From contig CAYGGK010000002.1 of the NCBI GenBank assembly GCA_964349555.1, positions 9,258 to 73,257 of the forward strand: a stretch of 64,000 nt of DNA, in the 5' to 3' direction. The position numbers and the translations under genes were made by a program. The notes below the pieces were generated by a model. It was not told the origin of the DNA and searched no databases. It saw only the letters and a list, made by a program, of their open reading frames with translations. Position 1 is the first letter of the stretch. Every line of letters begins with the position of its first letter. Shown in pieces: positions 755 to 50,712 of the stretch. The DNA comes from an uncultured Candidatus Saccharibacteria bacterium (GTDB taxonomy: Bacteria; Patescibacteriota; Minisyncoccia; Phycocordibacterales; Phycocordibacteraceae).

Positions 755-2992
755 ATGAGTCGTAAAAATGACAATGGTGCCAAGCGCTCTCGGACGCGAG
801 AGAAGACGGTCAGAGAGTACGGTACGCTTATTCGTTATGCCTCTACTATCGTGCTGTTGGCCGTCGGCGTGCTCCTTACGCTTGCCCTCTTCGGCGCGGC
901 CGGCCCGGTGGGTACGGCGGTCTTCGCCGCAAGTTATTCAATAGTTGGTATCGGCGCTTTTCTTCTCCCGGTGGCTTTAATTGTGGGGGGGCTTTATGCG
1001 GGATTCGGTCGCCCGACTCTCGCCCCTCTCACTACCTCGGGCGTTATCATCATTACCGCTTCAGTGCTTGCCTTCGCGGGACTCTTCCCCGACGCGGACT
1101 TCGGCGGGAAGACCGGGACCTTACTCGGTGAAGTGCTTGCCGGATTTTTTGGCTTCTGGGGAGCGTTGGTGCTTCTCATAGCGATTATCGCAGTCGGCAT
1201 CGTCATCCTGAGCGACATGGAGATGCTCTGGGCGCTTGTAAGTGAAAATGTTTCTTCTCTTTGGGAGCGGCTCCGCTCACGCAGTAAAGACGACGAAGAA
1301 CTCCCCGAGGAATTCACGGACGTCGTCGGCGTACCAGAGAACAACGACAGCCCTTACGCGCCTGAGGAGGTGCCAGAATCTTCTCAAACACAGGAGAGCG
1401 ATCCTGCGGTGACTGTTTTCTCCGCCAGAGGCGGACCCTCCTCTGGCGAAAATCGTTCCGGCATCGCGAACTTTGATGCCGAGTATGAGGCTCCTCCCCT
1501 CTCCATTCTCGGCGCGGACCGCGGACGCCCTGGTGTCGGGGACATAAAAGCGAATGCGAACATCATCAAACGCACCTTTCAGAACTTCGGCATTAATTTG
1601 GAGATGGACGAAGTCTCCGTCGGCCCGACCGTCACCCGATACGCGGTGAAGCCTGCTGAGGGCGTGCGCCTCTCAAAAATCGTTTCCCTCGCAAATAATC
1701 TTGAGCTCGCGCTCGCCGCGCATCCGGTGCGCATCGAGGCTCCTATCCCGGGGAAATCGCTCGTCGGCATTGAAGTGCCGAATACGGTGAAAGCGATGGT
1801 TGGTCTCGGCGGAATCCTGAGCGCCTCTGAGTGGTCTGACAGTACGAAACCTCTTCTCGCCGCGCTTGGGCGCGATATCACTGGCACACCGCACTACGTC
1901 AACGTCGCGAAGATGCCACACGCGCTCGTCGCGGGCGCAACCGGCTCCGGCAAAAGTGTCGCTATGCACGCGATTATCACTTCCCTGCTCTACCGAAACG
2001 GCCCCAACCAACTACGCTTTATCATGATTGATCCGAAGCGTGTGGAACTTACCGCGTATAACGGCATTCCGCACCTTCTCACCCCTGTCATCACCGACCC
2101 AAAGAAAGCTATCTATGCGCTTAAGTGGGCGGGTAAGGAGATGGAGCGCCGCTACAACATTCTAGAGACGGAGCGCGTACGCGATATTGATTCATACCAC
2201 TCAACTGTCTTTGAGAGAGCGAAGACAAAACAGGCGTCGGAGATGCCAGAGGCGCTTCCCTTCATCGTTATCGTTATAGACGAGCTCGCCGATATCATGC
2301 ACAGCTACCCGCGAGAACTTGAATCCTCTATTGTCCGCCTCGCACAGATGTCGCGTGCGACCGGTATCCACCTCATACTCTCCACTCAGCGTCCGTCGGT
2401 GAACGTCATCACCGGCCTTATCAAGGCAAACGTGCCGACACGCATGGCGCTCCAGGTCGCCTCCCAGATAGACTCGCGCACAATCCTCGACGGCTCCGGT
2501 GCCGAGACGCTACTCGGCGCCGGCGATATGCTCTATCTTTCAAGCGATATGCAGAAGCCTGTGCGTATTCAAACCGCCTTCATCAGCGAGAGCGAAGTAA
2601 AAAAGGTGGTGAGCTACATCCGTGCCCATAATGCGGGAGATCTTTCCAGCATAGACTTCGGCCTGTCCGGCCAGGGCGGTAATGGAGACTCGTCAGCTGA
2701 CGGCGGCGGTTTCGTAAACGGTGGCTTTGATGACGACGAAGAGATTGATGATGCGCTCTACGAGGACGCGCGTGCGGCGGTAGAAGCCGTCGGCCGCGCC
2801 TCAACCTCCTACCTCCAGCGCAAATTGAAAATCGGTTATTCGCGAGCGGCGCGGCTTATGGATGTGCTTGAAACAAAGGGCATTATCGGTCCCGCCGACG
2901 GATCAAAGCCGCGCGAGGTGCTTACCTCGCGAAATGCCGCAACCCAAAGCAGAACGACAGACATTGACGGAGATGAGGGTGATATTTCTTAA
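755..2992 (+). CDS. ftsK: DNA translocase FtsK/SpoIIIE (N-terminal TM helices, linker, C-terminal motor with Walker A GATGSGKS and gamma wHTH)
   Basis: ORF 689..2992; likely start at MSRKNDN (755); motifs VAGATGSGKSV, IVIDELADIM, SYLQRKLKIGYSRAARLMD (gamma domain). Confidence 0.9.
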   Translation: MSRKNDNGAKRSRTREKTVREYGTLIRYASTIVLLAVGVLLTLALFGAAGPVGTAVFAASYSIVGIGAFLLPVALIVGGLYAGFGRPTLAPLTTSGVIIITASVLAFAGLFPDADFGGKTGTLLGEVLAGFFGFWGALVLLIAIIAVGIVILSDMEMLWALVSENVSSLWERLRSRSKDDEELPEEFTDVVGVPENNDSPYAPEEVPESSQTQESDPAVTVFSARGGPSSGENRSGIANFDAEYEAPPLSILGADRGRPGVGDIKANANIIKRTFQNFGINLEMDEVSVGPTVTRYAVKPAEGVRLSKIVSLANNLELALAAHPVRIEAPIPGKSLVGIEVPNTVKAMVGLGGILSASEWSDSTKPLLAALGRDITGTPHYVNVAKMPHALVAGATGSGKSVAMHAIITSLLYRNGPNQLRFIMIDPKRVELTAYNGIPHLLTPVITDPKKAIYALKWAGKEMERRYNILETERVRDIDSYHSTVFERAKTKQASEMPEALPFIVIVIDELADIMHSYPRELESSIVRLAQMSRATGIHLILSTQRPSVNVITGLIKANVPTRMALQVASQIDSRTILDGSGAETLLGAGDMLYLSSDMQKPVRIQTAFISESEVKKVVSYIRAHNAGDLSSIDFGLSGQGGNGDSSADGGGFVNGGFDDDEEIDDALYEDARAAVEAVGRASTSYLQRKLKIGYSRAARLMDVLETKGIIGPADGSKPREVLTSRNAATQSRTTDIDGDEGDIS

Positions 2993-6345: not shown

Positions 6346-6798
6346 TTAGAATGGGATGTCCTCGGGATTAATCTCCTCGTCTGGATACTTAATCGACTCG
6401 TCATCCCTTCCGCCGGAGGCGGACCCGCCTTCGGCGGGCGGTTCCCCAACTCCTTGTCCGCCCCTCCCGCCATCGGCACCGAATTGGAAATTGTCCACGA
6501 CAATCTCGGTACGGTAATTTTTCTTTCCGCTCTCCTTATCGTCCCACGAGCGCGTCTGGATGCGCCCTTCAACAAAGATCCCGCGACCTTTTTTCATATA
6601 CTGCGCGATAACCTCGGCTGTCTTGCCGAATGCAACAATATTGTGGAACTCGGTCGCCTCTTGTTTTGCACCACTCTTATCCTTATAGGTACGGTTTGTC
6701 GCGATGCCGAAATTCGCGACACTGCCGCCAGACGGGAGCGCCTTCAGCTCCGGATCGCGGGTAAGGTTGCCATAGAGTAATACTTTGTTGAGGTACAT
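6346..6798 (-). CDS. ssb: single-stranded DNA-binding protein with Gly-rich acidic tail (tail carries an inserted palindromic element)
   Basis: MYLNKVLLYGNLTRDPELKALPSGGSVANFGIATNRTYKDKSG... OB fold; C-terminal DEEINPEDIPF tip; rpsF-ssb-rpsR synteny. Confidence 0.9.
   Translation of the reverse strand: MYLNKVLLYGNLTRDPELKALPSGGSVANFGIATNRTYKDKSGAKQEATEFHNIVAFGKTAEVIAQYMKKGRGIFVEGRIQTRSWDDKESGKKNYRTEIVVDNFQFGADGGRGGQGVGEPPAEGGSASGGRDDESIKYPDEEINPEDIPF
6410..6437. repeat. family-1 palindromic element inserted in-frame in the ssb tail (encodes PAEGGSASGGRD)
   Basis: CCGCCGGAGGCGG-AC-CCGCCTTCGGCGG; one arm mismatch. Confidence 0.85.
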
Positions 6799-8168: not shown

Positions 8169-9610
8169 AATCCTGCCTGCGCAGGCAGGCGCGGGAATAG
8201 GTTGTCCGGCTTTTTGTTTTCAAATACCGCCCTTTTTACCGCCTCGCACGTCGCCGGCATAAATGGGCTGAGGAGTATGGCTATCTGATAGAGCTCGGTA
8301 GCGAGCTCTCTGATGATAATACGTCCTTTTTCTACGTCCTCTTTTACAAGCTTGAAAGGTTCTTCGTGTGTAATGCGTTCATCGAGTCTTTGTATACGAC
8401 TCCAAACAAGATCCATCGCACGATTGAATTCAAACGCATCTATCATGTCCAAGTATTCTCGCGGAAACACGGGCTCTCCCGAGAGGATAACGGGATCTTC
8501 AAGATGAGTTTCGGCGAGCTTCATCACGCGCGCGACAAGGTTACCGAGGCCGTTCGTCAGATTTGCCGTGTACCACTCATCAAGGCGTTCCCAAGTGACG
8601 TCCGAGTCTTCCACCGGGTGGACGTGGCGCAGGAGTATATACCGTGTCGCGTCAGTGCCATATTTCTTCACGAGTTCGTAGGGACTGATAACATTGCCCA
8701 AAGACTTGCTCATCTTCTGCCCGCCACTCGTTATGAATCCGTGGTAAAAGACCGTGTCGGTTGTCTTACTGTCTGCCGACATCAGCATCGCTTGCCACAT
8801 AAGCGACTGAAATCGTACTTGGTCCTTTCCTGCTACCTGAAGCGTTGTTCCCTCTTCCCAAAACTTCTTGAAATCTCCTTGCTCGTCTTCGGGCCAACCG
8901 AGCGTGGAAATATAATTAGTGAGCGCATCAAACCAGACATACATCACCTGCGAATCATCATTCGGGACCGGAATGCCCCATGAGAGCCGTTTTTTCTCGC
9001 GCGAGATGCTGAAATCTTCAAGCCCACCTTTCACAAAGGCAATCGCCTCTTCTTTCCGCCATTCGGGGATGATGACACCGGGACGAGACAGGTATTCGAG
9101 CAGGCGATCATCATATTTCGAGAAGCGGAAGAAATAATTCTCTTCGGTTATCTCCTGAAGTTTCAGATTGGTGTGGGTGGTGCAATGATCGTCCGCTATT
9201 TCTTTCTCGGTTTTGAACGATTCGCATCCTACACAGTACACACCCGTATAGGCTTTCTTGTAGATGTCGCCCGCGATGTCGCACCGCCGCCACATTTCGG
9301 CCGCTGCCGCGTAGTGGCGCCGTTCTGTGGTGCGAATGAAAACATCGTTTGAGAGGTCAAGTGCGGTGCCGAGCTTTCGGAATTCGTCCGCATAGTGATC
9401 GACGTATGCATGCACGTCCTGTCCCGCTTTCTCTGCGGCTTCGTATATTTTCTGGCCGTGCTCGTCGGTACCAATCGAGAAAAAGACATCATTGCCCGCA
9501 AGCCGCCACGCGCGCGCGAGTGCATCTGCCTGAACGAATTCAAGCGCGTGCCCAAGGTGCGGATCCGCGTTCACATACGGGAGCGTCGTGGTGACGTAGC
9601 GCACACTCAT
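8165..9610 (-). CDS. metG: methionyl-tRNA synthetase (class I, no C-terminal tRNA-binding domain)
   Basis: PYVNADPHLGHALEFVQAD (HIGH region), KMSKSLGN, zinc knuckle CVGCESF. Confidence 0.9.
   Translation of the reverse strand: MSVRYVTTTLPYVNADPHLGHALEFVQADALARAWRLAGNDVFFSIGTDEHGQKIYEAAEKAGQDVHAYVDHYADEFRKLGTALDLSNDVFIRTTERRHYAAAAEMWRRCDIAGDIYKKAYTGVYCVGCESFKTEKEIADDHCTTHTNLKLQEITEENYFFRFSKYDDRLLEYLSRPGVIIPEWRKEEAIAFVKGGLEDFSISREKKRLSWGIPVPNDDSQVMYVWFDALTNYISTLGWPEDEQGDFKKFWEEGTTLQVAGKDQVRFQSLMWQAMLMSADSKTTDTVFYHGFITSGGQKMSKSLGNVISPYELVKKYGTDATRYILLRHVHPVEDSDVTWERLDEWYTANLTNGLGNLVARVMKLAETHLEDPVILSGEPVFPREYLDMIDAFEFNRAMDLVWSRIQRLDERITHEEPFKLVKEDVEKGRIIIRELATELYQIAILLSPFMPATCEAVKRAVFENKKPDNLFPRLPAQAGL
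8172..8189. repeat. 18-bp perfect palindrome CCTGCCTGCGCAGGCAGG (family 2) forming the last codons of metG (..LPAQAGL*) next to the tatD start
   Basis: Seen in sequence; identical copy at 62987..63004 in holA. Confidence 0.8.
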
Positions 9611-10720: not shown

Positions 10721-12115
10721 TTATTCAATGGCGGAGCGGATACGGGAGGCGACTTCGGGAATGGAGAGGCGCTCTTGTTCGCCTGAGTCACGGTGGCGGA
10801 GTGTGACGGTATCTTTTCCGCCGGAGGCGGACCCGCCTCCGGCGGGGAGTTCTCCCAACGTTTCAAAGTCTATGGTAATGCAGAAAGGCGTACCGATCTC
10901 GTCTTGGCGGCGGTAGCGTTTGCCGATGTTGCCGTTATCGTCCCATGCGATTGCAGGATGGACTTTCTTGAGCTCGGCGCGCACTTCCCTCGCCTTCGCG
11001 ACCAGCTCGGGCTTATTCTTCAACAAGGGCGAGACCATCGCTTTTATCGGCGCGACCTTAGGCGAGAGCGCGAGATACGTGCGGGTTTCTTCACCCATAG
11101 TGTCTTCGCGATACGCATCAACTAATACGGCGAGAAGCATTCGCCCTACGCCGACTGACGACTCTATCACGTATGGGATAATTCTTTCTTTTGTTTCTTC
11201 ATTAAAATAACTCAAATCCTGTCCGCTCGCTTTTGCGTGATTCGTCAAATCGAAGTCAGTTCTATTATGAGTACCCCAAAGCTCCTTAAAGCCCTGTGGA
11301 AACTTGAAATAAATATCGTGCGCAGCAGAGGCGTAATGGGCGCGTTCGTTCTCTGCATGCTCGTGCCACTGCAGATTCTCCTCGCGTACACCAAGCACAT
11401 CGGTCATAAAATTCCACGCAACGTTCCTCCACGTTTCGTAAGCGACGGTCTGTGTTTCTGAATTGATAAAATACTGCATTTCCATTTGCTCGAGCTCGCG
11501 AACACGAAATATGAAGTCGCGTGGTGCTATTTCATTTCTAAATGCTTTCCCTATCTGCGCGATACCAAACGGCAATGCAGGATGAATTGTATCAATAACA
11601 TTTTTAAAATTCGTAAAAATAGATCCCGCTGTTTCTGGACGCAAATAGGCGACAGAAGAATCGTCCTCAATAGGGCCAACCCACGTCTTCATCATCATAT
11701 TGAACGTGCGTGGTGGTGTAAGTGTTTTTTCACCACAGGTTGGACACGCCGCATCGGTAAGAAGGTTGGTCAATTCAGCGATATTTGTACTGTCAGTTCC
11801 AGCAAGATGGTCGGCACGAAGCCGTGCTCCACAATTCTTACAATCAACAAGAGGGTCGGTAAATCCTGCAACGTGCCCGCTCGCCTCCCACAATTTCGGG
11901 TTCTGAATGATGGCGCCGTCAACACCAAAAATATCGTCTCTCTCTTGCACTATTTTGCGCCACCACAATTGCTTTAGGTTGTTTGCCAATTCGACACCAT
12001 ACGGCCCATAATCCCAAAAGCCTGCTATGCCTCCGTATATTTCACTCGCGGGGAAGACAAACCCGCGGCGCTTGCAAAGCGAGACGATTTTTTCCATCAA
12101 CTGCGAGTCGGCCAT
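10721..12115 (-). CDS. glyQS: glycyl-tRNA synthetase (dimeric class II GlyQS type)
   Basis: MADSQLMEKIVSLCKRRGFVFPASEIYGGIAGFWDYGPYGVELANN... class II motifs; start at internal Met (12115), since the ORF-track extension has no homology and would overlap the upstream gene. Confidence 0.9.
   Translation of the reverse strand: MADSQLMEKIVSLCKRRGFVFPASEIYGGIAGFWDYGPYGVELANNLKQLWWRKIVQERDDIFGVDGAIIQNPKLWEASGHVAGFTDPLVDCKNCGARLRADHLAGTDSTNIAELTNLLTDAACPTCGEKTLTPPRTFNMMMKTWVGPIEDDSSVAYLRPETAGSIFTNFKNVIDTIHPALPFGIAQIGKAFRNEIAPRDFIFRVRELEQMEMQYFINSETQTVAYETWRNVAWNFMTDVLGVREENLQWHEHAENERAHYASAAHDIYFKFPQGFKELWGTHNRTDFDLTNHAKASGQDLSYFNEETKERIIPYVIESSVGVGRMLLAVLVDAYREDTMGEETRTYLALSPKVAPIKAMVSPLLKNKPELVAKAREVRAELKKVHPAIAWDDNGNIGKRYRRQDEIGTPFCITIDFETLGELPAGGGSASGGKDTVTLRHRDSGEQERLSIPEVASRIRSAIE
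10818..10845. repeat. family-1 28-bp palindromic element CCGCCGGAGGCGG-AC-CCGCCTCCGGCGG inserted in-frame in the glyQS C-terminal domain (encodes PAGGGSASGGKD)
   Basis: Perfect 13-bp inverted arms; near-identical copies at 6410, 50082 and 50627. Confidence 0.85.
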
Positions 12116-14033: not shown

Positions 14034-14603
14034 TCAAAGGCCAGAGGCGTCGAGACCGTTATTGATGCGCACGATGTATTTTGTGCGATTTTTTGAAATA
14101 TCGGCAAGCGGCTCCGGAGCGAACATAGACACTCCGCTCGGAATGTCTCCCGCATCAAGTCCGAGCGCTGACAACACGTGAAGCGCGGCGAGCACTTCGG
14201 CGGCCTCATGCGTTTCTTCAGGAAGCGTGGCGAGTGTTTCAAAAAATCCTCTGATGATTTGGGAAAGCGCCGGATCGCGAATTTCGCCGGCAACGAGGCG
14301 GAGCAGGAGACTAGAGATGCGTCCCGCTCGCGTGCGCGACTCGGCACCGCCGAGCCGCATGAACCAGTTTTCTGCGAGAACGGCCCCCGCGACTCTCCAG
14401 CCTTCTTTCCCGCGCACGAGCACGACGTCGCTCTCGGCAAAAGTGGTGAGCGCCGCGGCGAGCTTTGCGCCTGGACGGCGAAGTCCTTGCGCCCGCGCGC
14501 GCACAAGGCCTACATCGACAGTAATGAGTGTAACGAATGCATTCGCCTCTCCGAGCGGTGAACGAGAGAGTACGATGCCGCGTGTCTCGTATTTATGCCG
14601 CAT
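14034..14603 (-). CDS. recO: DNA repair protein RecO-like (short form)
   Basis: N-terminal OB-fold region MRHKYETRGIVLSRSPLGEANAFVTLITVDVGLVRARAQG characteristic of RecO; 189 aa. Confidence 0.6.
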   Translation of the reverse strand: MRHKYETRGIVLSRSPLGEANAFVTLITVDVGLVRARAQGLRRPGAKLAAALTTFAESDVVLVRGKEGWRVAGAVLAENWFMRLGGAESRTRAGRISSLLLRLVAGEIRDPALSQIIRGFFETLATLPEETHEAAEVLAALHVLSALGLDAGDIPSGVSMFAPEPLADISKNRTKYIVRINNGLDASGL

Positions 14604-17600
14604 CAGAAACGAGATTAAACTGCACGGTGCCCGTCGAGAGCGTGGCTGAGTACTTCCCTGCCTGACCGGCGGTCAGGCCCTCCGGCCGAATCTCGACGCG
14701 TACTTTATCTTTCGGCGAGAGCCCTTCCGTTTTACGCGCTTCGGCGACGGCGCGCGCCATCTCGCGCTCATCGCCTTCCTTAATGAGGGAGGGCGTGAGG
14801 ACCGCATCGAGAGCAAGTTCTTCGCCTACAATTATCTTTTTCACATTCACCTCCTCAGCGAGAAGCTGAGCCAGCTCACTACTAAGCGCCCCGATGACAG
14901 TGAGGCTCGCGAGCGGTTGCCGTACTTTAATTCCGGCCTTCTGTCGCAGTTGTAGCGCTTCTGATGCGAGGGCGCGCACGCGGTTCATGTCGGCGACAAC
15001 CTTCCTTTTCTTGCTTCCGCCAAAGAGTTCCCACTTCCCCTGTATCAGAGGCCAATCGGCAAGATGTACGCTTTCCGAGTCACTGGTCTCTCGGACCTCT
15101 TGAAAGATTTCTTCAGCGATGAACGGCATAACGGGCGCCGCCACTTTAGAAAACTCCTTGAGTACCTGCCGCAGAGTAGAGAGCGCATTCGCCTTGTCTC
15201 CATCATCGTCACTTTTCACCCGATCACGAGAGCGGCGTATATACCACGTTGAAAAGTCGTCAATAAATTCGCGCATCGGTCGTGTGGCGTGTGGGACGTC
15301 ATAGCGGTCGAATGCCTCGGTTGTCGTTGCTACAAGTTCTTCGAGTCTGGCGAGAATCCAACTGTCCAGAACATTTTTACTCATAGCATTGGCAGGCCCG
15401 GCATCATCTTTATAGAGCACGTAAAAGGCGAGGATGTTTCGTAGCATGTTTACCACCCGCGCATGTACCTCCTTTATTTCTTCGTCGCGAAAGGTAATAT
15501 CTTCGGCCTGCATCACAACCGACGACATAAGGTAAAAACGGAACGCATCAGCACCGTAACGATCAAAGAGCTCGTATGGATCAGTATAATTCTTCTTACT
15601 CTTTGAGACTTTTGCGCCGTCAGCGGCAAGTATGTTGCCGGTCGTAATAACGTTTCGAAATGCAAGACGACCAAAAACCTCTATTCCTATTGCGTGCAGA
15701 TAGTAAAACCATGCGCGCGTTTGTCCGATATATTCTGAGACGAAGTCTCCTGGCGAACGCTTTTCAAACTCTTTTTTATTCTCGAACGGATAATGGTATT
15801 CGGCGAACGGCATGGAGCCGGACTCCACCCAACAATCAACAACTTCAGGAACGCGCGTGAGCGTATTCCCCTTCTCATCTTCAAGCTGAATTTGGTCAAT
15901 GTACGGCAAGTGGAAATCAAGCTCGTAATCGCGATTGTGCGGAAGCGGTATAAAATCGAGCTTGCGCAGGCTGGCAGTCTTCGCGTAGAGGGGCCAGACG
16001 AGCCTGAGCGACTCTTTCTTGTCAGCGCCGAGCGCGACGGAGCCGAGCGCTTCAAATCCAATACCGTGTGTAACAATCAAGATAGTCTGGTTCGTCTGAC
16101 TTCGCTCAATTTCATACAAGAATTCTCCAAAACGATTCTTAGCGTCCTGATAACTCTCGCCGCCCGGGACGTGGTCGTCAAACTGACGTGCATCCCGGTA
16201 AGCCTGAAACTCCGTCACGGGCCGATTGTTAAGCTCTCCAAATTCAAACTCGCGTAGACGGTCATCATAAATCACCGCCTCTTTGGGGATTTTAAGCTCC
16301 TCAACAATAACTTCGACCGTTTCGCGCGTACGTTGAAGCGGCGAGGCATACACACGCGTAGGGCGCGGCAGGGTGGGCGCTACCGCTTTAACCTCAACCC
16401 TCCCTTTGTCTGTAAGAGGGTTCCCTATTCGACTATTGCTTGCGATCCCTTTTACATTGTTTTCTGATTCGCCGTGGCGCATCACGAAGTACGTGTTGCC
16501 TGATTTCTTCGTGTGTTTCTTAAGTTCTTCAAGAGACCCGACGACCGTTACGTTTCCTTTTTCATCCTTCCAGATAGGGAGCGGACTGGCCCAGAAGCGA
16601 TTACGAGAGATGGTCCAGTCAGGCGCAGTCTCGAGATTGTGTTTGAAGCGGCCCTCTTTAAGGTGTCCCGGAACCCAGTTGATTTTCTCGCTCTCAAGAA
16701 GCATCTTCTCTTTTACATCTTGAATGTTTATGAACCAGCTTGAGACGGCATTGTAGATAAGAAGCGTGCCGCAACGGTAACAGTGCGGATACGAGTGGGT
16801 GTGTGAGGCTTTCGCGAATAACAGACCGCGGCTCTCCAGGTCTTCTTTAATTAAATGTTCTGCTTTTTTAATGTATTGTCCGCGCAAGAATTCCGGCGCA
16901 TCATCGTTGTACGTTGCGTTCGGATTCAAAAGCGGCACCATCGGCAACCCCTCTTTCAACCCAAGATTGTAATCGTCCTCTCCGTAGATGACAGCGGTAT
17001 GCACGATACCTGTTCCTTCCTCGGTGTGTACGAAATCTGCCGGGAGCACCTGCCACTTCTTGCCTGCGTACTCTTTTACTTTTTCCACTGCGTAGAGCGG
17101 TTCGTAGGTGAGGCCAACCAGTTTTCCCCCAGACAGCTTCTGTAAAACTTCGGCACCGGGCAGAATGGCAGACAGCCTCTCTTCTGCAAGCCAGACATCT
17201 CCCTTGTCAGTGTGCGCAAGTACGTACTGGATTTCAGGCCCAACGGCCAAGGCGACATTCCCGGGAAGCGTCCACGGAGTGGTAGTCCACGCGAGGAAAT
17301 ACTCGTTTTCTCTCCCTATAATCTTAAACTTGATCGTTACCGCCTCTTCGGTGATGTCTTTGTAGGTATTGTCCATCGCGATTTCCGCTTTTGCGAGAGG
17401 CGTCTCGCAGTGCGGACAGTACACAAGCACTTTCCTACCCTCATAGAGCCGACCTCTTTTATGAATTTCCTTGAGCGCCCACCACACACTCTCAATGAAC
17501 GAATTGTCCATCGTCTTATATGAATTGTTGAAATCAACCCACCGCCCAACACGCTCAATGTATCGCTTCCAGTCACGCACATATTCGAGGACTAGGGAGC

Positions 17601-17949
17601 GGGCAGTCTCGTTAAATTTTTCTATGCCGAGTGCGAGTATTTCTTTTTTATTCTTCAATCCGAGTCTTTTCTCCACTTCCGACTCTATCGGGAGCCCGTG
17701 AGTGTCCCAGCCCCATCGGCGACGCACATAATAACCGCGCATCGTTTTGTAGCGCGGTATAAGATCTTTCGATACCGAGGAGAGCAGTGAGCCGGAATGT
17801 GGCAGCCCTGTTGCAAATGGCGGGCCGTCATAAAAAGTAAACTCACCTTTCGGGGACTTCTTCGCGAGCGATTTCTCAAAGATGCGTTCTCGATCCCAAA
17901 ATGCGAGTATCGCCTCTTCGCGTTTCGCAACCTCTGATTTCTCTAGCAT
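14593..17949 (-). CDS. ileS: isoleucyl-tRNA synthetase (type 2) containing an inserted histidine-phosphatase (PGM-like) domain
   Basis: PPFATGLPHSGS (HIGH-like), editing-domain WTTTPWTLPGN / GTGIVHTAVIYGEDDY, WTISRNRFWASPLPIW, KVSKS (KMSKS-like), then an insertion at residues ~483-676 with RHGESENN ... SPLQRTRETV ... IVTHGIGF. Confidence 0.9.
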   Translation of the reverse strand: MLEKSEVAKREEAILAFWDRERIFEKSLAKKSPKGEFTFYDGPPFATGLPHSGSLLSSVSKDLIPRYKTMRGYYVRRRWGWDTHGLPIESEVEKRLGLKNKKEILALGIEKFNETARSLVLEYVRDWKRYIERVGRWVDFNNSYKTMDNSFIESVWWALKEIHKRGRLYEGRKVLVYCPHCETPLAKAEIAMDNTYKDITEEAVTIKFKIIGRENEYFLAWTTTPWTLPGNVALAVGPEIQYVLAHTDKGDVWLAEERLSAILPGAEVLQKLSGGKLVGLTYEPLYAVEKVKEYAGKKWQVLPADFVHTEEGTGIVHTAVIYGEDDYNLGLKEGLPMVPLLNPNATYNDDAPEFLRGQYIKKAEHLIKEDLESRGLLFAKASHTHSYPHCYRCGTLLIYNAVSSWFINIQDVKEKMLLESEKINWVPGHLKEGRFKHNLETAPDWTISRNRFWASPLPIWKDEKGNVTVVGSLEELKKHTKKSGNTYFVMRHGESENNVKGIASNSRIGNPLTDKGRVEVKAVAPTLPRPTRVYASPLQRTRETVEVIVEELKIPKEAVIYDDRLREFEFGELNNRPVTEFQAYRDARQFDDHVPGGESYQDAKNRFGEFLYEIERSQTNQTILIVTHGIGFEALGSVALGADKKESLRLVWPLYAKTASLRKLDFIPLPHNRDYELDFHLPYIDQIQLEDEKGNTLTRVPEVVDCWVESGSMPFAEYHYPFENKKEFEKRSPGDFVSEYIGQTRAWFYYLHAIGIEVFGRLAFRNVITTGNILAADGAKVSKSKKNYTDPYELFDRYGADAFRFYLMSSVVMQAEDITFRDEEIKEVHARVVNMLRNILAFYVLYKDDAGPANAMSKNVLDSWILARLEELVATTTEAFDRYDVPHATRPMREFIDDFSTWYIRRSRDRVKSDDDGDKANALSTLRQVLKEFSKVAAPVMPFIAEEIFQEVRETSDSESVHLADWPLIQGKWELFGGSKKRKVVADMNRVRALASEALQLRQKAGIKVRQPLASLTVIGALSSELAQLLAEEVNVKKIIVGEELALDAVLTPSLIKEGDEREMARAVAEARKTEGLSPKDKVRVEIRPEGLTAGQAGKYSATLSTGTVQFNLVSDAA
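14657..14677. repeat. family-2-related palindrome CCTG-CCTGACCGGCGGTCAGG in the ileS C-terminus (encodes GLTAGQAG)
   Basis: Shares the CCTGCCTG arm with the metG/holA elements; centre differs. Confidence 0.5.
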
Positions 17950-24358: not shown

Positions 24359-24392
24359 AAACCGCCCCGACAGCTCCGCTGTCGGGGCGGTT
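24359..24392 (-). terminator. strong hairpin terminator downstream of rplK (AAACCGCCCCGACAGC-TCCG-GCTGTCGGGGCGGTTT flanked by A/T runs)
   Basis: 16-bp perfect stem with flanking A- and T-runs (bidirectional potential). Confidence 0.7.
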
Positions 24393-24403
24393 TCTGTATA
24401 AAA

Positions 24404-25704: not shown

Positions 25705-25723
25705 AGTGAAATAGTCAGGTTAA

Positions 25724-25762
25724 CCCAGCACCTAATTTTTGTTGCAAAAATTAGGTGCTGGG
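25724..25762. repeat. long perfect hairpin (18-bp stem CCCAGCACCTAATTTTTG / CAAAAATTAGGTGCTGGG, 3-nt loop) upstream of secE
   Basis: Seen in sequence; intergenic. Confidence 0.6.
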
Positions 25763-25786
25763 TGAAATAAAAAAGCCCTGCGGGCT
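25763..25786 (-). terminator. rho-independent terminator for the SIMPL-domain gene (GCCC-GCA-GGGC + TTTTTTATTT on minus strand)
   Basis: Short GC stem followed by a T-run on the minus strand. Confidence 0.5.
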
Positions 25787-31000: not shown

Positions 31001-32668
31001 TTAAGTAGGAAACTCTACAATAAAAGTCGAGCCCTTGCCCGCGCCCTCGGATTCGGCGCGGATGGTGCCACCATGCGCCTCCACAATCTGCTTCGCGATG
31101 TAGAGGCCGTAGCCGGTGGAGTGGACGTTCACCTTCTGCGACTCCTTACCGTGACCACCCTCGGTGAAGAGCAGTTTCTTATCTTCATCGGTTATGCCGA
31201 CGCCAGTATCTTTTACTTTGAAAACAAAAACATCCTTGTTGAGCGATTTATCCCGAGTCTTTTCGAGGGAAACCGCTACCGAGCCAGTCGGTGTGTAGTT
31301 AATAGAGTTGTCTATCAGGTTGCGTAGCACGTGGTCGCCGATTTGAGCTCTGTCTCCGGTCATCTCATACGACCCCTCATCGGTGGTAAAGGAGAGATTG
31401 AGCCCTTTCTGCTCGGCAGAGGACTTCGCCTTCTCTACCGCCTCTCCCACAAGAGCCTTGAGATCAAAGGTCGCTTTCGTGTAGGTCACGGTCCCCTTCT
31501 TCAAGTTCGCGGCCTTAAGGATATTCTCCACTGCACCAGCGCTCTGGCGTGACTCGGTGAGCGCATGCTCAACAAACGGCTTGAGCGTGTCGGGCAACAC
31601 TCCAAAGTCGCCCTCAGCGAGCGCGGCGAACGCTCCTGCATCCTTGGTCAACGACCCCTTCACCTCATGCCCGATGAAATGTATAAGCGTCTCCTGTCTC
31701 TCGTTGGTCTTCGCGAGCTCCCCCGCGAGTTCTTCAATATGCTCTCGCTGCTCAATCTCCCGTTTGACGCTTCGGACAAGGAACCAGCCGAAAATTATTG
31801 CAGAAAACAGTGTAATCCCAGTTAACACATAACTGACCGGATTTGTTACGAAGAGGAATTCCGCTGCCACTAGGATGACAAGGGAGACAACAAGTGCCTG
31901 GGTTGCAACGAGCTTTATATTAAACGCATGATATCGAGTCGTCGCATACGCAAGAATCCCAACAAAAATTGTCATGGCTGCCATGCCATATTGTGAAAGT
32001 CCGAAATCTGGTATATATCCCTGGTCAACAAGATAGCTCGCTACGACTCCTGTAACTAGAAAAGAGAAGGTAAAAAGTTCCGCGCCAGCAAAAATAACGA
32101 CTCGTGCAGATCGAATTTGGTAATCAGCGACATTCTTTTTGCGAAGCCCTTGGAACGCAGAAACCGCCATTAAGACCATGGCAAGTATGCCGAGACCGTA
32201 ATAATAGTTGGTAAACCAAGTCCCTTCGATTGCGATACAGTCTCTGATGTTATACCCGATGAGATTCGCAGTGGTAGGGGTGAAGATGAGTATGGGAAGA
32301 AATGCCACAGTCCAAACTGTAGCCATCCAAGCTGGCAATGGACGCTCAGTAATAGATACATGCACGAACCAATTTGTGAAAAAGAAAAGTAGCACCGAGA
32401 GCAGTCCGAGTTCTGCCCATGAAGACATGATGAATGTATTGTCTTCAATATAAATCCATTGCAATAAATCAAGCGTTGAATAGATTGAGAAAATAACAGC
32501 AATAACGGCAAGTAAGACACTTGCAAGATCCCTGCGTTTTAACAATACATAGCCACCGAAAAGAAGGGACGCCACGATTGCTGGTATATGGGTGTAATAG
32601 AGCAATCCTTGAGAATCCAAAAAAAACTGGTAGCAGTATTGAAGATTGTTCAAGAGATTGTATTCCAT
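31001..32668 (-). CDS. sensor histidine kinase with a roughly 7-TM N-terminal sensor domain
   Basis: HisKA H-box IHFIGHEVKGSL, HATPase_c N/G boxes (NLIDNSINYT, DTGVGI, GYGLYIAKQIV); no response regulator seen in window. Confidence 0.8.
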   Translation of the reverse strand: MEYNLLNNLQYCYQFFLDSQGLLYYTHIPAIVASLLFGGYVLLKRRDLASVLLAVIAVIFSIYSTLDLLQWIYIEDNTFIMSSWAELGLLSVLLFFFTNWFVHVSITERPLPAWMATVWTVAFLPILIFTPTTANLIGYNIRDCIAIEGTWFTNYYYGLGILAMVLMAVSAFQGLRKKNVADYQIRSARVVIFAGAELFTFSFLVTGVVASYLVDQGYIPDFGLSQYGMAAMTIFVGILAYATTRYHAFNIKLVATQALVVSLVILVAAEFLFVTNPVSYVLTGITLFSAIIFGWFLVRSVKREIEQREHIEELAGELAKTNERQETLIHFIGHEVKGSLTKDAGAFAALAEGDFGVLPDTLKPFVEHALTESRQSAGAVENILKAANLKKGTVTYTKATFDLKALVGEAVEKAKSSAEQKGLNLSFTTDEGSYEMTGDRAQIGDHVLRNLIDNSINYTPTGSVAVSLEKTRDKSLNKDVFVFKVKDTGVGITDEDKKLLFTEGGHGKESQKVNVHSTGYGLYIAKQIVEAHGGTIRAESEGAGKGSTFIVEFPT

Positions 32669-32674
32669 GTGGCT

Positions 32675-33442
32675 CTAGACGAATTGCCGCACCTTTTCTG
32701 GATAATAACACCCGAGCGGGCCATCATCAGTTTCCATAGGTTCAATGGGGACAATAAGCGGTTGTAAACCAAAAACTTCTTTCAGTTTCCGGAATGCCGG
32801 AAGCACTTTGATATTAGTAAAAAATGATTCTCGTTTTTCTGTTGTAAAATTACCGAACAAAATTGCATCTGATATGAACAACCCCAGGTATCGAAGATAC
32901 GGTAATTCGGGCGCAAAAGAATATCCTTTGCGGAACCAATCAGAGAAGTCGTATATTTCAATATTCACGCCTGGCAAACATTCCGAGAAAAGGCGGTGGT
33001 GGAAATCAATAAAATTTTCACCTTTTATGGTCTTGATTTCATTCATCGGCTTTCCTTGATCTTTTTCAAAATCGATAATACGTATCGACTCAGTAATCTT
33101 CTTGTTCCCTAAGAAGTTCTCTCGAAAGAATGTCAGCTCGCCTAAGCAGTGTTTTACATAATTTAAGTGGACAAACTTATCCTTTCTAAATTCATAGAAA
33201 ATAGGTCTGATTGGTAGATTTTTAGAAACATCCAGAAAATAGTTAAGTTCAAGGTTTGGACTTACAAGCGTAGGGGACATTACCGCTCGTGGCTCTAACA
33301 TTAATTCAGGAGGGCATGGGTGCGAAGAGAAGTAAGCATCCACCCTCTTCCTCAATTCCCTATCACCTCGGCGACGCTTAAGTTCTTCCAGCGCTTTCGT
33401 CAATGGTGTATAAAGTTCTGCGATTTCAGAATAGGAGGACAT
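32675..33442 (-). CDS. hypothetical protein (low-GC island; operonic with kinase)
   Basis: ORF only; 6-nt gaps to neighbours; no family recognised. Confidence 0.3.
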   Translation of the reverse strand: MSSYSEIAELYTPLTKALEELKRRRGDRELRKRVDAYFSSHPCPPELMLEPRAVMSPTLVSPNLELNYFLDVSKNLPIRPIFYEFRKDKFVHLNYVKHCLGELTFFRENFLGNKKITESIRIIDFEKDQGKPMNEIKTIKGENFIDFHHRLFSECLPGVNIEIYDFSDWFRKGYSFAPELPYLRYLGLFISDAILFGNFTTEKRESFFTNIKVLPAFRKLKEVFGLQPLIVPIEPMETDDGPLGCYYPEKVRQFV

Positions 33443-33448
33443 GAGACG

Positions 33449-33787
33449 TTATTGATTTGTGGTTATGGGACCATAGCATGTATTTTCTTCGCCTGATTCA
33501 CAATATTGAACTGTACAGCTTGAATCATCCTCCACACAACTCAACTCCGGACACTGGCCTGCCCACCCGTCACAGATAGGTATTGTGTTAGCTCTCTTTG
33601 TAATCTCTGCGTAATATTGTGGCGCATTTTCTCCGTCTCCAATAAAACAGGAATGCTGGGTTGGATCGCATGATACGTTTGCAAAAACGAGATAATCACG
33701 AACAATATAGAATTTATAAAATGCCGCACTCGCCGACACTAGCGACACCAGGACGATAATCCAGATGAGAATCCGAGTCCCCTTCAT
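33449..33787 (-). CDS. small secreted Cys-rich protein (signal peptide plus about 10 Cys)
   Basis: MKGTRILIWIIVLVSLVSASA signal; C-rich mature region; start at internal Met of ORF 33449..33898. Confidence 0.4.
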   Translation of the reverse strand: MKGTRILIWIIVLVSLVSASAAFYKFYIVRDYLVFANVSCDPTQHSCFIGDGENAPQYYAEITKRANTIPICDGWAGQCPELSCVEDDSSCTVQYCESGEENTCYGPITTNQ

Positions 33788-33848
33788 GGTTATTATTTTA
33801 ACACAAAAAAAGAAAATCGGCGGCATGCGTTGTGCGCATTGCCGCCGA

Positions 33849-34382
33849 TCAAGTGAGACCGAACCAGTTGAAGATGAAGCGGAGGCCCTCGACGGCAAGG
33901 GTTACAACACCTGTCCACCAGAGGTTGGCCACCAGAACACTGCCCCAGAAGATTCTCCAGTCCCGAGACGAGAGGCCGTTGTACGCTTCCGCGCCATGCC
34001 GCATGTACACGGTCGTCACGAACGGATCCGTGAAGCAGGACAAGGCGAGGAATGCGAGCCAGTCACCCTTGCGGGTGGCCCATTGGATAAGGCGCGCCAC
34101 GCGCCCTTGCTTCTCTTCCCCATCTCGCACTCCCTTGAGGAGTTCGAGACCGAGCCAGTCTTGCTTAGACCAGTCGTAGAAGAGGAGGTAGAGCCAGCAG
34201 ATGAGAGCTGAGAATACGGTCATGACGAGACCGCCGGAAATTGCCCCCAACCACGCTATGACCGCAGGGTAGAAGGTGTAGTCAAACACAAACTCCTCCG
34301 CCTGCTTGAAGCCATGGCCGACAGCCATGATACCGATTCGCTCTTTCCAGCGAATCGGTTGATTCGCTGATTTGAGCGCCAT
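33849..34382 (-). CDS. polytopic membrane protein (about 4 TM), function unknown
   Basis: ORF with hydrophobic segments; first gene of the putative four-gene minus-strand operon. Confidence 0.35.
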   Translation of the reverse strand: MALKSANQPIRWKERIGIMAVGHGFKQAEEFVFDYTFYPAVIAWLGAISGGLVMTVFSALICWLYLLFYDWSKQDWLGLELLKGVRDGEEKQGRVARLIQWATRKGDWLAFLALSCFTDPFVTTVYMRHGAEAYNGLSSRDWRIFWGSVLVANLWWTGVVTLAVEGLRFIFNWFGLT

Positions 34383-34600
34383 TTGGCATCTCCCTTGTTT
34401 GTTACGTTAATGTTCAGGCATTCGACTCCCGACGCACTGTCGTGCTGTCGAGTACAAATACCGCTACTTATATTAAAGCACGACTATCTAAAATGTACAA
34501 GTGTTTGACAATTTATAGATTTAGTAATACGATTTACTCGTGAGTCGTAATTGTGCTACTCGCCTTGGCCTACGCGCCATGAATGTAGAAAGAGAAAACA

Positions 34601-34987
34601 ATGCTTGCTCAAGTTCTTATAAACGAAGACGGGATAAACGCTCGCGCGATCTCCCAGCAGGTTTCTCTCCCTGAGTTCGACACCCACGTTCTTAAGCGGG
34701 TGTTAAGGGAAGAATCAAACTTGCATGACCCTCGCCCCCTAACCGACGCACAGATCGACGCCGACGTTGATGCCTACCTGGAATTCCTTCGCGAACGAAA
34801 GCTGAACCACGGTGTCAACATCGTGCCCGTGGTCCAGGTCGATCGGGTCTGGCACATTCACATCATTCAGACCGAGCAGTACGCCCAGGTCTGCAACGAC
34901 TACTTCGGCTACTTCCTTCATCATGCATCTTTCATCTGCGGCATGGGCGACGGTAAGAAGATGGTCCCCTGGCATACTCGTCAGTAG
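34601..34987 (+). CDS. hypothetical protein (possible DUF1399/GRDP-like WHxH motif)
   Basis: VDRVWHIHIIQTEQYAQVCNDYFG resembles the conserved core of DUF1399; weak. Confidence 0.3.
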   Translation: MLAQVLINEDGINARAISQQVSLPEFDTHVLKRVLREESNLHDPRPLTDAQIDADVDAYLEFLRERKLNHGVNIVPVVQVDRVWHIHIIQTEQYAQVCNDYFGYFLHHASFICGMGDGKKMVPWHTRQ

Positions 34988-35118
34988 TACCACCATTTGA
35001 GCCGAACCCAGTCCTCAAGCCTGCTTTCCTCTATCTCTAAGGGAAAGCAGGCTTTTGAATTGTCGTGCGAGACAAGGCTGAGTTGCGGAACAGGCAAGAT
35101 GCTCGTACAATTTTCTCA

Positions 35119-36762: not shown

Positions 36763-36775
36763 ATAATCGTACACA

Positions 36776-37462
36776 TCATTCAATCTCCTTGAGCGCTTCC
36801 ATTGTTACGTGGACTAACTCGATCACCTCCTCATCCTTTTTCGGAGAATGCCCCATCCCTTCTATTAAATGAAGCTTAGAATTCGAAAGCATGGTGTTGA
36901 GCGTTTCTGAATTTTCAATTGATACAGCATCATCACTCGTCCCATGCACTATATGAACGGGAATATCGATTTCTCGCAAGAAATTCTTTCCAAGGGTAAT
37001 TGATAGAAGTGGGTCAATATCAGAAAATGGCTTGGACTTCATCTCATTAAAGTTTCCTTCATCAGTTTCCGAAAATCCAATCGCAGGAGCCCACAATATC
37101 AATATATTAATACGTTTATCGTTTGCGGCAAGTAGCATCCCGCCGCCAAAACTTTTACCAATGCCGTATATGTCAGTATACCCCATCTCCAAAAGGGAGG
37201 ACACTGATTCATGTATTCTTTCAACTATTTTAGCGATACACATTTCTCCTAGATCAGTACTAGCGTTCCACACCTTAAGGCACTCAGAGTGAATACCTCC
37301 TTTATTTAACTGATCTTTTAGCATTTCATAGAGTGGTAACTGCTTTTCTGCATTTATGCCTGGAACGAAAAGAACTGCGCGGGTTTTTTTCTGCTTTGGT
37401 TTGGAGCTGGAAATAAATTTTGTATCTTCTAGTTTCATATTTCTAATTTTATCACTTTTCAA
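36776..37462 (-). CDS. alpha/beta hydrolase (dienelactone hydrolase-like)
   Basis: GxSxG nucleophile elbow GIGKSFGG, C-terminal His GMGHSP. Confidence 0.6.
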   Translation of the reverse strand: MKSDKIRNMKLEDTKFISSSKPKQKKTRAVLFVPGINAEKQLPLYEMLKDQLNKGGIHSECLKVWNASTDLGEMCIAKIVERIHESVSSLLEMGYTDIYGIGKSFGGGMLLAANDKRINILILWAPAIGFSETDEGNFNEMKSKPFSDIDPLLSITLGKNFLREIDIPVHIVHGTSDDAVSIENSETLNTMLSNSKLHLIEGMGHSPKKDEEVIELVHVTMEALKEIE

Positions 37463-37500
37463 CGAGCTATCGAGACGCTGTGTTTTCTTTGTTCGGGATG

Positions 37501-42214: not shown

Positions 42215-42257
42215 AACATCAGCCCACTGGAGCGGAAAATCTGCTTCGGTGGGTTTT

Positions 42258-42295
42258 CTGTTAACTTTTGGTGCGCGGTGAGGGACTTGAACCCC
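42258..42295 (-). other. tRNA 3' fragment (T-arm + acceptor 3' strand + CCA: GGGGGTTCAAGTCCCTCACCGCGCACCA); no matching 5' half
   Basis: Revcomp reads as a canonical T-loop/acceptor/CCA, but no D-arm or anticodon arm can be folded upstream; overlaps the 3' end of ORF 42261..42950. Confidence 0.45.
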
Positions 42296-42950: not shown

Positions 42951-43045
42951 ATCTAGTATATCATAGGTATACTCTGTATATGTATATTATATCAGTTCGC
43001 TTATTTAGCAATCCTCGATATTGGTGGTATTGTGGAAAAGTTCTT

Positions 43046-43118
43046 GGGCGATTAGCTCAGTTGGTAGAGCAATGTCCTTACACGACAAAGGTCGCAGGTT
43101 CGAGCCCTGCATCGCCCA
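43046..43118 (+). tRNA. tRNA-Val (anticodon TAC)
   Basis: Manual fold: GGGCGAT acceptor, D-loop AGTTGGTA, anticodon loop CTTACAC, T-loop TTCGAGC. Confidence 0.8.
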
Positions 43119-43181
43119 CACAAGTAGCAGAACGGCTCATATACGCCGTATATGAGCCGTTCTGCTGATATAATTCCCGAG

Positions 43182-43265: not shown

Positions 43266-43300
43266 AATCTTACACGTAAACTCATCCTAACAGAAACTTG

Positions 43301-49986: not shown

Positions 49987-50422
49987 GGGCAATACGTGAA
50001 AGGTAACTGGTAAGAATAAGCGCGGCGGCAGAGGCATCGACGGCCTCGCGCCTTTTGGGCGCGCGTGTCTTTCTCTCTTTTCCACCGAAGGCGGACCCGC
50101 CCTCGGCGGTTGCAGGCGCGCGACGCGCCTGCGCACTCGTGAGCCCTTCCCACTCATAGAAGACTGGGACGCCGCACCGAGCCGCGACTTCTTCTCCGAG
50201 CTGTTTTGCCCCTTTCGCGGCAGGGTTTTCCTTTCCCGCATAATCAAGCGAGTTGCCGACCACAAGGGCACGCACGTCCTCTTTCGCTATAATTGCGCAA
50301 ATGTGTTCAACTGCCTTGGGAGTGTTCGGGACGACCAAGTGAGGAAACCCCATCGTGCCCGTCTCATCAGAGAGCGCGAGACCAATCTTCTTGGTGCCGT
50401 AGTCAATGCCAAGATGTCGCAT
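49979..50422 (-). CDS. ruvX: YqgF/RuvX-like Holliday-junction resolvase / pre-16S rRNA nuclease
   Basis: MRHLGIDYGTKKIGLALSDETG.. RNase H-like N-terminus; carries the family-1 insert PATAEGGSAFGGKE. Confidence 0.8.
   Translation of the reverse strand: MRHLGIDYGTKKIGLALSDETGTMGFPHLVVPNTPKAVEHICAIIAKEDVRALVVGNSLDYAGKENPAAKGAKQLGEEVAARCGVPVFYEWEGLTSAQARRAPATAEGGSAFGGKERKTRAPKRREAVDASAAALILTSYLSRIAHE
50082..50109. repeat. family-1 palindromic element (degenerate copy CCACCGAAGGCGG-AC-CCGCCCTCGGCGG) in-frame in ruvX
   Basis: Two arm mismatches relative to a perfect palindrome. Confidence 0.7.
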
Positions 50423-50514
50423 ATAAAGAGAAGTGTATGATATAACCTGGTTCTGTGCACGACAGGACAGGGATGGGTGAAAATTTTAGATCTTTGAAAA
50501 ATTCTACACGGAGC

Positions 50515-50601
50515 GGAGGGGTCGCATAGTTGGTCTAGTGCGGTGGACTTGAAATCCACTGTGCCGTAAGGCACCGCGAGTTCGAATCTCGCCCCCTCCG
50601 C
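50515..50601 (+). tRNA. tRNA-Ser (anticodon TGA), type II
   Basis: Manual fold: acceptor GGAGGGG/CCCCTCC, anticodon loop CTTGAAA, long variable arm TGTGCCGTAAGGCAC, T-loop TTCGAAT. Confidence 0.8.
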
Positions 50602-50605
50602 TCCG

Positions 50606-50712
50606 TCGCGGAATCTAGAGCTTTGCCCGCCAGAGGCGGGTCCGCCTCTGGCGGAAAAACTAGCGGGCCAAAAGCCCTTGTGGGTTCGAGTCCCACCCCT
50701 TCCGCAGATGAT
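50606..50712 (+). other. tRNA-like element (5' GCGGAAT..., 3' GTGGGTTCGAGTCCCAC-CCCTTCCGCA) disrupted by or containing a family-1 palindrome at 50627..50654
   Basis: Good T-arm and 3' acceptor-like strand, but no canonical D/anticodon arms; the palindrome plus flanking CTAG..CTAG occupies the central region. Confidence 0.4.
50627..50654. repeat. family-1 palindromic element, perfect copy CCGCCAGAGGCGG-GT-CCGCCTCTGGCGG inside the tRNA-like locus
   Basis: 13-bp perfect arms; central dinucleotide GT (reverse orientation relative to plus-strand copies at 6410/10818/50082). Confidence 0.85.

Follow-up and report, generated by a model that had tools for sequence, protein, structure and literature searches.

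A glycyl-tRNA synthetase gene of an uncultured Saccharibacteria bacterium carries a probable solo copy of a nuclease-associated 30-nt double-hairpin element

Rickettsia palindromic elements (RPEs), which are ~100–150 bp long and confined to Rickettsia, are in-frame palindromic inserts in the housekeeping genes of reduced genomes that add a surface peptide while the protein is kept, and to our knowledge no enzyme is associated with them. The double-hairpin elements (DHEs) of fungi are said to have been linked by Paquin and colleagues, in 2000, to a mobile endonuclease open reading frame (ORF). In the part of the work of Paquin & Lang that is relayed by PMC10085805, the DHEs of chytrid and fission-yeast mitochondria are short GC-rich double hairpins of suspected mobility, and fungal DHEs stay in transcripts (PMC2800124). 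REP/REPIN–RAYT systems consist of dispersed short palindromes and doublets with one small nuclease-type gene flanked by the repeat; the repetitive extragenic palindromes (REPs) themselves lie outside genes and carry a GTAG or CGTC tag (PMC3733652). GIY-YIG homing endonuclease genes are small genes in a conserved target that keep a working target copy and show presence/absence polymorphism. Minimal GIY-YIG domains also make up the standalone Slx1-like proteins of prokaryotes, whose role is undescribed (PMC1564403). Here we analyze a 64,000-nt stretch of DNA, called the window throughout, from an uncultured Candidatus Saccharibacteria bacterium (GenBank assembly GCA_964349555.1, contig CAYGGK010000002.1, positions 9,258 to 73,257), in which a palindrome lies inside the gene for glycine–tRNA ligase (GlyRS). 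The palindrome had been pointed out in a reading made from the letters of the DNA, the sequence-only reading. With a probability of roughly 60%, we consider it an orphan, a solo copy of a mobile double hairpin of 30 nt that is associated with a small GIY-YIG nuclease.

The element shares with mitochondrial DHEs two adjacent GC-rich hairpins, conserved stems, differences confined to the loops, near-identical copies across species, and a scattering through intergenic DNA and tolerant parts of genes. The comparison is one of architecture. The element described here is bacterial, exactly 30 nt long and often genic in one reading frame, and it brackets a cassette composed of a GIY-YIG nuclease gene and a tRNA-Ser gene. 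Like RPEs, the element is a palindromic insert that lies in frame in housekeeping genes of reduced genomes and adds a surface peptide while the protein is kept, but it is only 30 nt long, occurs in Patescibacteria and several other phyla, and comes with a candidate enzyme. With REP/REPIN–RAYT systems the element shares dispersed short palindromes, their doublets and a small nuclease-type gene between copies of the repeat. It was nevertheless rejected as a REP/RAYT system: it has no tag, many of its copies lie in genes, and what the repeats flank is a GIY-YIG nuclease gene beside a tRNA rather than an HUH/Y1 transposase gene; of the 83 Pfam families matched by ORFs of the window, the 25 that were listed do not include Y1_Tnp. 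The cassette shares with GIY-YIG homing endonuclease genes the features given above, and the flanks of the GlyRS site may have been co-converted, whereas the protein here is a minimal Slx1/UPF0213-type domain and a self-spreading 30-nt repeat has no classical counterpart. No description of the element was found in Rfam or in the literature, in a search limited to open-access papers and bioRxiv.

The gene that hosts the palindrome is otherwise intact. Its product matches PDB 8u2q with E = 3e-129, contains both Pfam domains (PF00587 and PF03129) and is 85–88% identical to sister GlyRS. The inverted repeat at 10818–10845 of the forward strand is as perfect as first described, reading CCGCCGGAGGCGG-AC-CCGCCTCCGGCGG, with 13-nt arms that are 100% complementary and a 2-nt centre. 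On the coding minus strand the repeat reads P-A-G-G-G-S-A-S-G-G, residues 424–433 of 464, followed by K-D, in the predicted peptide ...ELPAGGGSASGGK...; 31 residues remain after the insert. The insert lies in a surface beta-hairpin loop, the one that joins the two final beta strands of the anticodon-binding domain. In an AlphaFold2 model (mean pLDDT 74.7), residues 416–435 are a low-confidence coil between strands 411–415 and 436–441, with pLDDT <50 at residues 428–432. Because the gene is otherwise intact and the insert lies in a coil between strands, we agree with the sequence-only reading that a housekeeping enzyme tolerates the element. The insert is probably neutral for GlyRS function. 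The companion copy that had been placed in the SSB tail is also present, at 6410–6437, with the peptide PPAEGGSASGGRDD.

What did not survive from the first description is the nature of the unit, which covariation shows to be 30 nt long and composed of two adjacent hairpins rather than one 13+2+13 palindrome. Each hairpin has a 6-bp stem, CCCGCC-NNA-GGCGGG followed by TCCGCC-TCN-GGCGGA, and the consensus with flanks is [T/C][G/C/T]-CCCGCC-NNA-GGCGGG-TCCGCC-TCN-GGCGGA-AAA. Covariation was measured in 46 distinct 30-mers, all taken from loci that had been selected without regard to the repeat. Under the two-hairpin model 96.9% of cells were paired and 9 of 12 pairs showed compensatory double changes, a result that 0 of 500 shuffles matched; the compensatory stem pairs were CAGCC/GGCTG, CTGCC/GGCAG, CCACC/GGTGG, CCGAC/GTCGG and GCGCC/GGCGC. 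A single hairpin with 13-bp arms was rejected, as its 86.5% pairing equalled the shuffle mean and there was no covariation between the arms. Variation falls mostly in the two loop triplets, which do not covary with each other, and in variants from several phyla the first loop is widened to 5–20 nt with both stems kept. The palindrome of 28 bp is thus a by-product of two self-complementary 13-mers, and it is perfect only if their loops are complementary, as GGA and TCC are in GlyRS. An intrinsic terminator was also rejected, since AAA(A) follows the element and a T-run occurs only 5' of the hairpin on the opposite strand. At gathering score, Rfam 15 returned only tRNAs and one tmRNA for the window and 20 loci, none overlapping the element, and at E up to 10 nothing overlapped it within 50480–50760.

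By sequence comparison, the GlyRS palindrome is a recent, derived in-frame insertion of the 30-base double-hairpin repeat. In an alignment to three solved Mycobacterium GlyRS structures, the sole gap in the C-terminal domain was a clean one of 12 residues, LPAGGGSASGGK. Within the best 120 homologues, which are 69–100% identical and come from Patescibacteria, the segment was carried only by the window's own protein (P0001; homologues are numbered with P and genomic loci with L) and by P0030 (76% identical). The segment is therefore not conserved across GlyRS, in line with the sequence-only reading, and the nearest relatives of both carriers lack it. At this loop Kaiserbacteria-like relatives read TLGE-x-P-E-L-K-D-TVTL and more distant ones TLED-DTVTL. 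The empty site of the closest relative, P0002 (88%), is GGC GAG AAT CCG GAG CTC^AAA GAC, and the filled site of the window is GGA GAA CTC-[30 nt]-AAA GAT. Relative to P0002, the window has gained exactly 30 nt at the Leu^Lys junction (CTC^AAA) and lost the 9 nt for Asn-Pro-Glu, between two Glu codons just upstream of the insert, a net gain of 7 residues. In the two syntenic loci L002 and L003, the GlyRS site and that of a further copy in FtsK were both empty, and the SSB site was filled in L002, as in the window, and empty in L003. A different, unrelated insert of ~20 residues (DPGTTPRPVAQEATTGAAATGQGN) was seen in the same GlyRS loop of the homologue P0017, and the loop appears, from these sequences, to be a general hot spot for length change.

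Additional copies were found in the window (Table 1). A search with up to 3 mismatches returned three copies (6410, 10818 and 50627) against 0 in 100 dinucleotide-preserving shuffles, and looser arm searches added decayed copies at 1422 and at 50082. When any adjacent pair of GC-rich hairpins with 5-bp stems and 3-nt loops was allowed, exactly the three intact copies were detected, compared to 0.38 expected. Four of the five copies lie in genes and share a reading frame, with the FtsK copy in opposite orientation; the fifth is intergenic, just after tRNA-Ser(TGA). A consistent orientation relative to transcription was rejected, the FtsK copy being reversed.

Table 1. Positions in the window of the GlyRS gene, the five copies of the double-hairpin element and the remains of the cassette.
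Feature	Position	Strand	Description
FtsK linker copy, decayed	1421..1450	-	gene on + strand; opposite-orientation read SARGGPSSGE
SSB copy, intact	6409..6438	-	CCCGCC GAA GGCGGG TCCGCC TCC GGCGGA; disordered C-terminal tail, PAEGGSASGG
Glycine--tRNA ligase gene, class II, GlyQS type (host gene)	10721..12115	-	464 aa, starts MADSQ...
GlyRS element, intact	10817..10846	-	30 nt: CCCGCC GGA GGCGGG TCCGCC TCC GGCGGA
RuvX/YqgF-like gene copy, decayed	50081..50110	-	peptide AEGGSAFGGK
Nuclease ORF 3'-end remnant	50450..50514	+	rest of gene deleted
tRNA-Ser(TGA), intact	50515..50601	+	tRNA accompanying cassette
Non-coding copy, intact	50626..50655	+	CCCGCC AGA GGCGGG TCCGCC TCT GGCGGA; right-hand cassette repeat
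Pseudo-tRNA-Ser 3' half	50656..50712	+	variable arm GGGCCAAAAGCCC, T arm GTGGGTTCGAGTCCCAC, acceptor strand CCCTTCCGC

The element is also widespread outside this genome. A scan of one genome per species with the pattern GGCGGGTCCGCCTCNGGCGG (19 specified bases) found at least 119 stretches in many phyla, compared to ~4 chance matches calculated for the 596 Gb on both strands. Among the matches listed, the left arm CCGCC, which is outside the search pattern, was present in 88 of 124, and the few matches in high-GC isolates that lack it look like chance. The hosts among these listed matches include many lineages of Patescibacteria, together with metagenome bins labelled Omnitrophota, Elusimicrobia, Kiritimatiellae, Planctomycetes, Dehalococcoidia/Chloroflexota, WOR-1 and some Proteobacteria. 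A viral origin was rejected, with only 7 matches in 2.9 million IMG/VR contigs.

The candidate enzyme comes from the neighbourhood of these copies. In L093, the neighbours of the repeat are a duplicated tRNA end and a GIY-YIG ORF of small size. A jackhmmer search over all ORFs of the loci found by the pattern yielded 10 GIY-YIG ORFs; 8 of them have a copy no more than ~150 nt away, in every case on the strand of the ORF. In the reverse test, seven of the GIY-YIG proteins were aligned and metagenome contigs were searched by protein only. A double hairpin was found within 300 nt of the nuclease in 56 of the 80 loci so selected, usually 7–45 nt upstream of the start codon, and often a second copy lies 110–140 nt downstream. 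A tRNA gene was present in 55 of 60 scanned loci, nearly always as the next feature 3' of the ORF and with the same orientation; most are tRNA-Ser (TGA, CGA or GCT) and a few tRNA-Lys or tRNA-Asn. The cassette begins with a pseudo-tRNA-Ser 5' half ending in CTTG, the element, and AAAAC directly followed by the ATG of a nuclease of 80–86 aa; it continues with an intact tRNA-Ser, 15–25 nt ending in CTTG, the element again, AAAAC and a pseudo 3' half. Within a cassette, the mean difference between the two flanking copies is 1.6 nt, compared to 5.4 nt between loci, showing that they are copies of each other, like insertion or recombination repeats; 4 of 9 pairs are identical and others have rare indel variants in common. 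The nuclease belongs to PF01541 (E = 2e-8 to 2e-19), and its profile matches UPF0213 (1zg2, 1ywl) and the SLX1 structure-specific endonucleases. No NCBIfam model matched at its cut-off, the group I intron endonuclease model scoring far below. The protein is the catalytic domain alone, with no recognisable DNA-binding extension. 'Family 1', as the palindrome family had been named, is a cross-phylum element tied to the GIY-YIG/tRNA-Ser cassette, not a peculiarity of this genome.

The intergenic copy of the window stands in the remains of such a cassette. Positions 50450–50514 align with the final ~60 nt of the nuclease genes in L111, L076, L131 and L133; identity to L111 is 43 of 63 nt, and the translation in frame 3 is ..GMGENFRSLKNS.., compared to ..WIGENFGSLKSSV with a stop, or WIGENFGSLKSS, in L111. 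The tRNA-Ser(TGA) is followed by 24 nt that end in CTTTG and then by the element, so that the copy sits at CTTTG^AAAAC, the anticodon-loop position of the pseudo-tRNA-Ser 3' half. This half is not called as a tRNA and is identical over ~50 nt to the same position in L111. Together, the remnant, the tRNA-Ser, the element and the 3' half indicate that the genome carries or once carried the cassette. We also observed that the ~50 nt of the 3' half are identical across genomes (L111, L133, L134) whose real tRNA-Ser genes differ substantially, and that its acceptor strand CCCTTCC mismatches the upstream 5' half. The tRNA-Ser-like 3' half could be part of the mobile unit or under a constraint of its own.

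Dead tRNA fragments standing side by side with intact tRNAs allowed exact insertion boundaries to be read, either within one locus or against the matching site elsewhere. In the anticodon loop of tRNA-Ser(TGA) the junction is CTTG-[30]-AAAAC (L067, L076, L111); D-loop insertions read GGTTG-[30]-AAGGC (L007) and GGTCG-[30]-AATGC (L148); and a T-loop insertion, GGGTTC-[30]-GAGTCC, is filled in L133 and empty in the window and L111. The T arm of a Dehalococcoidia tRNA-Val fragment (L093) reads gtcc-[29]-agta, with an insert of 29 nt. There is no target duplication at the sites compared. Across all copies the flanks are T-[G/C]^A-A-A, with no tetranucleotide tag resembling GTAG or CGTC, and the TT[G/C]^[A/G]A-like junction of the tRNA-fragment sites is also seen at coding sites. 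An alternative interpretation of 'TGC' before the element as a tRNA-Ala anticodon was rejected, the fragment being the tRNA-Ser anticodon loop CTTG^AAAAC. At 730–830, L133 contains a second double hairpin of another stem subtype (TCAGCC...; TCCGCC TAT GGCGGA), nested in the T-loop of the pseudo-tRNA 3' half, a position that is empty in the window and L111.

Copies inside protein-coding genes are biased to one reading frame. Where an ORF of 150 codons or more spans a listed match, the peptide is PAxGGSASGGK in 41 cases and its reverse-strand equivalent SAGGGPASGG in 13; the other spanned ORFs are mostly long spurious ones in GC-rich DNA. RecG was hit in three lineages, each time at one and the same HG-x-M^K site; further hosts are SecA, MutS, TopA, DnaG, PheT, a SecD-like protein and substrate-binding proteins. 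The codon before a coding copy is typically Leu, Met or Phe and the codon after it Lys, and many copies are ATG^AAA insertions that give N-termini of the form MPAKGGSASGGK. The frame bias is what would be left, as the expected residue, by purifying selection on a 30-nt insert that lands at random. A third GlyRS insertion, in L046, was considered and rejected, because the ORF, judged by reading alone, is unlike GlyRS and looks like a membrane (SecD-like) protein. In L021 (Planctomycetia), an ORF of 1679 codons contains the reverse-frame SAGGGPASGG plus two GT-frame-like stretches, AVSGSASGGD and AVGGSASGGE, which suggests that this giant protein received several insertions in one gene.

We propose that copies land as exact 30-nt insertions at sites like the cassette junction, TT[G/C]^[A/G]A, and that the GIY-YIG nuclease would be the mobiliser. 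In one version, the nuclease would cut TTG^AAA-like sites, and repair from CTTG-[element]-AAAAC would use a few flanking bases as microhomology; the inserted element would then block re-cutting. In the other, a nuclease of the structure-specific Slx1 type would act directly on extruded hairpins. Since 30 nt equal ten codons, read in the frame Pro-Ala-x-Gly-Gly-Ser-Ala-Ser-Gly-Gly, an in-frame copy in a loop, linker or terminus would be tolerated and persist, and copies landing elsewhere are presumably purged. The broader proposal, that these copies represent a new class of bacterial mobile DNA, a cross-phylum 30-nt double hairpin that is moved by a minimal Slx1/UPF0213-like nuclease residing next to tRNA-Ser genes and adds a decapeptide to essential proteins in their loops, linkers and N-termini, is put forward tentatively, at a little under even odds.

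Several points weigh against this interpretation. First, the GlyRS allele is not a pure 30-nt insertion, since 9 nt are also absent. Second, P0030, at 76% identity, has the same compound allele, and its nearest relatives P0029 and P0028 (83%) do not; a shared allele needs either two parallel events or short-patch transfer between lineages. A D-to-E change five codons upstream of the insert, common only to the two carriers, hints at such a transfer as far as the two sequences go. Third, the case for a nuclease that cuts or moves the element is drawn from linkage, and dead tRNA-Ser halves, which exist only where cassettes do, could serve as ideal neutral TTG^AAA targets. Fourth, the 80 loci selected by protein were the top tblastn matches of a single query of Patescibacteria type and are phylogenetically uneven, and the phylum labels are those of metagenome bins, which may include mis-binned contigs. 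Lastly, an intact nuclease gene is absent from the 64-kb window.

The third of these points leads to the rival that survives best, although we regard it as doubtful: an independent miniature element, moved by some other mobiliser, that accumulates in the dead tRNA-Ser halves made by the cassette. Such an element would account for the insertions in the D-loops and T-loops of the same dead fragments, for the TT[G/C]^[A/G]A motif common to all these sites, coding ones too, and for the 24 of 80 cassettes that have no recognisable copy. It does not account for the occupation of the same junction on both sides of the cassette by copies with private variants in common, nor for an orientation that follows the nuclease strand in 8 of 8 cases and a position usually 7–45 nt from the start codon; moreover, no other candidate enzyme recurs in these loci.

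It is improbable that the repeat is instead a selected signal useful to the host, such as a DNA-uptake sequence, a protein-binding site or a hairpin for RNA processing or stability, with a shared factor that reads it. Conservation across phyla with fixed stems and free loops fits a signal, the frame bias in coding DNA resembles that of uptake sequences, and a copy placed so closely before the start codon of the nuclease could have a regulatory role. Against this, sites are polymorphic between close relatives, some copies are decayed, and others lie in dead tRNA fragments or are nested in other repeats. The density is low (5 copies in 64 kb), there is no U-run or Rfam match, and the viral contigs yielded the 7 matches given above. 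A local origin of the GlyRS repeat, be it template switching that perfected a quasi-palindrome, an old feature of GlyRS or an assembly artefact, with a coincidental likeness to the other copies, can practically be dismissed, since the identical 30-mer occurs in unrelated genes of many genomes and in no shuffle, the same allele is present in independent NCBI/ENA and JGI assemblies, and 118 of the 120 best homologues lack the segment, even though the loop is a length hot spot with the unrelated 20-residue insert of P0017 and a 5-residue extension in the clade.

Other observations concern the repeats around the element. Non-coding copies often cap a longer inverted repeat of the host, as in L016 (680–790 and 2370–2490), L022/L070, L034, L052, L094 and L107; in Omnitrophota the arms of these inverted repeats are made up of 7-nt repeats (GTTTCAC / GTTACAG) that resemble parS half-sites. 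In L095, L116, L049, L105 and L009 the element has strings of other short, GC-rich hairpins in its vicinity, of the type GTCATTCC...GGAATC, and it is sometimes inserted in their loops. The classical UPF0213-type GIY-YIG ORFs of L004 and L013 are preceded by peptides typical of translated GTCATTCC-type hairpin repeats. A second family of small palindromes, CCTGCCTGCGCAGGCAGG, has two copies in the window, at 8172–8189 and 62987–63004, both in minus-strand genes and both reading L-P-A-Q-A-G, one at the extreme C-terminus of MetRS (...RLPAQAGL, then the stop) and one in the interior of a 222-aa protein. The CCTGCC...GGCAGG hairpin of this family adjoins the double hairpin in the Planctomycetes loci L095, L116 and L105.

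Elsewhere in the window, long inverted repeats that are perfect or nearly so and do not belong to the family were observed at 43126–43166, 25720–25766 and 24359–24393, among them one with 20-nt arms between tRNA-Val and tRNA-Leu and one with 22-nt arms and a GC hairpin that is terminator-like; all three are probably ordinary terminators. The GC content is 0.43–0.47 at 32000–38000 and 42000–46000, compared to ~0.53 elsewhere, and these stretches may have been acquired horizontally. The isoleucyl-tRNA synthetase-like gene at 14593–17949 encodes ~1120 aa. Its counterpart in L002 (4169–7534) contains a match to the histidine-phosphatase family PF00300, and the 935-aa orthologue in L003 (4723–7530) does not, the PF00300 region being a domain-sized insertion in another synthetase.

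If the proposed reading is true, no smaller self-propagating insert would be known from protein-coding genes of bacteria, and the element would come with a concrete, testable candidate enzyme. The near-identity of its copies in distant phyla implies either horizontal spread or a very strong constraint on a 30-nt DNA structure, both of which are unusual. It would give a role to the abundant standalone Slx1-like GIY-YIG proteins of bacteria. It would also explain the recurrent Gly/Ser/Ala-rich decapeptide in essential enzymes of uncultivated bacteria, which would otherwise be taken as lineage-specific in alignments, phylogenies and structure predictions, and the copies would serve as natural experiments that mark the positions at which a protein accepts a 10-residue loop.

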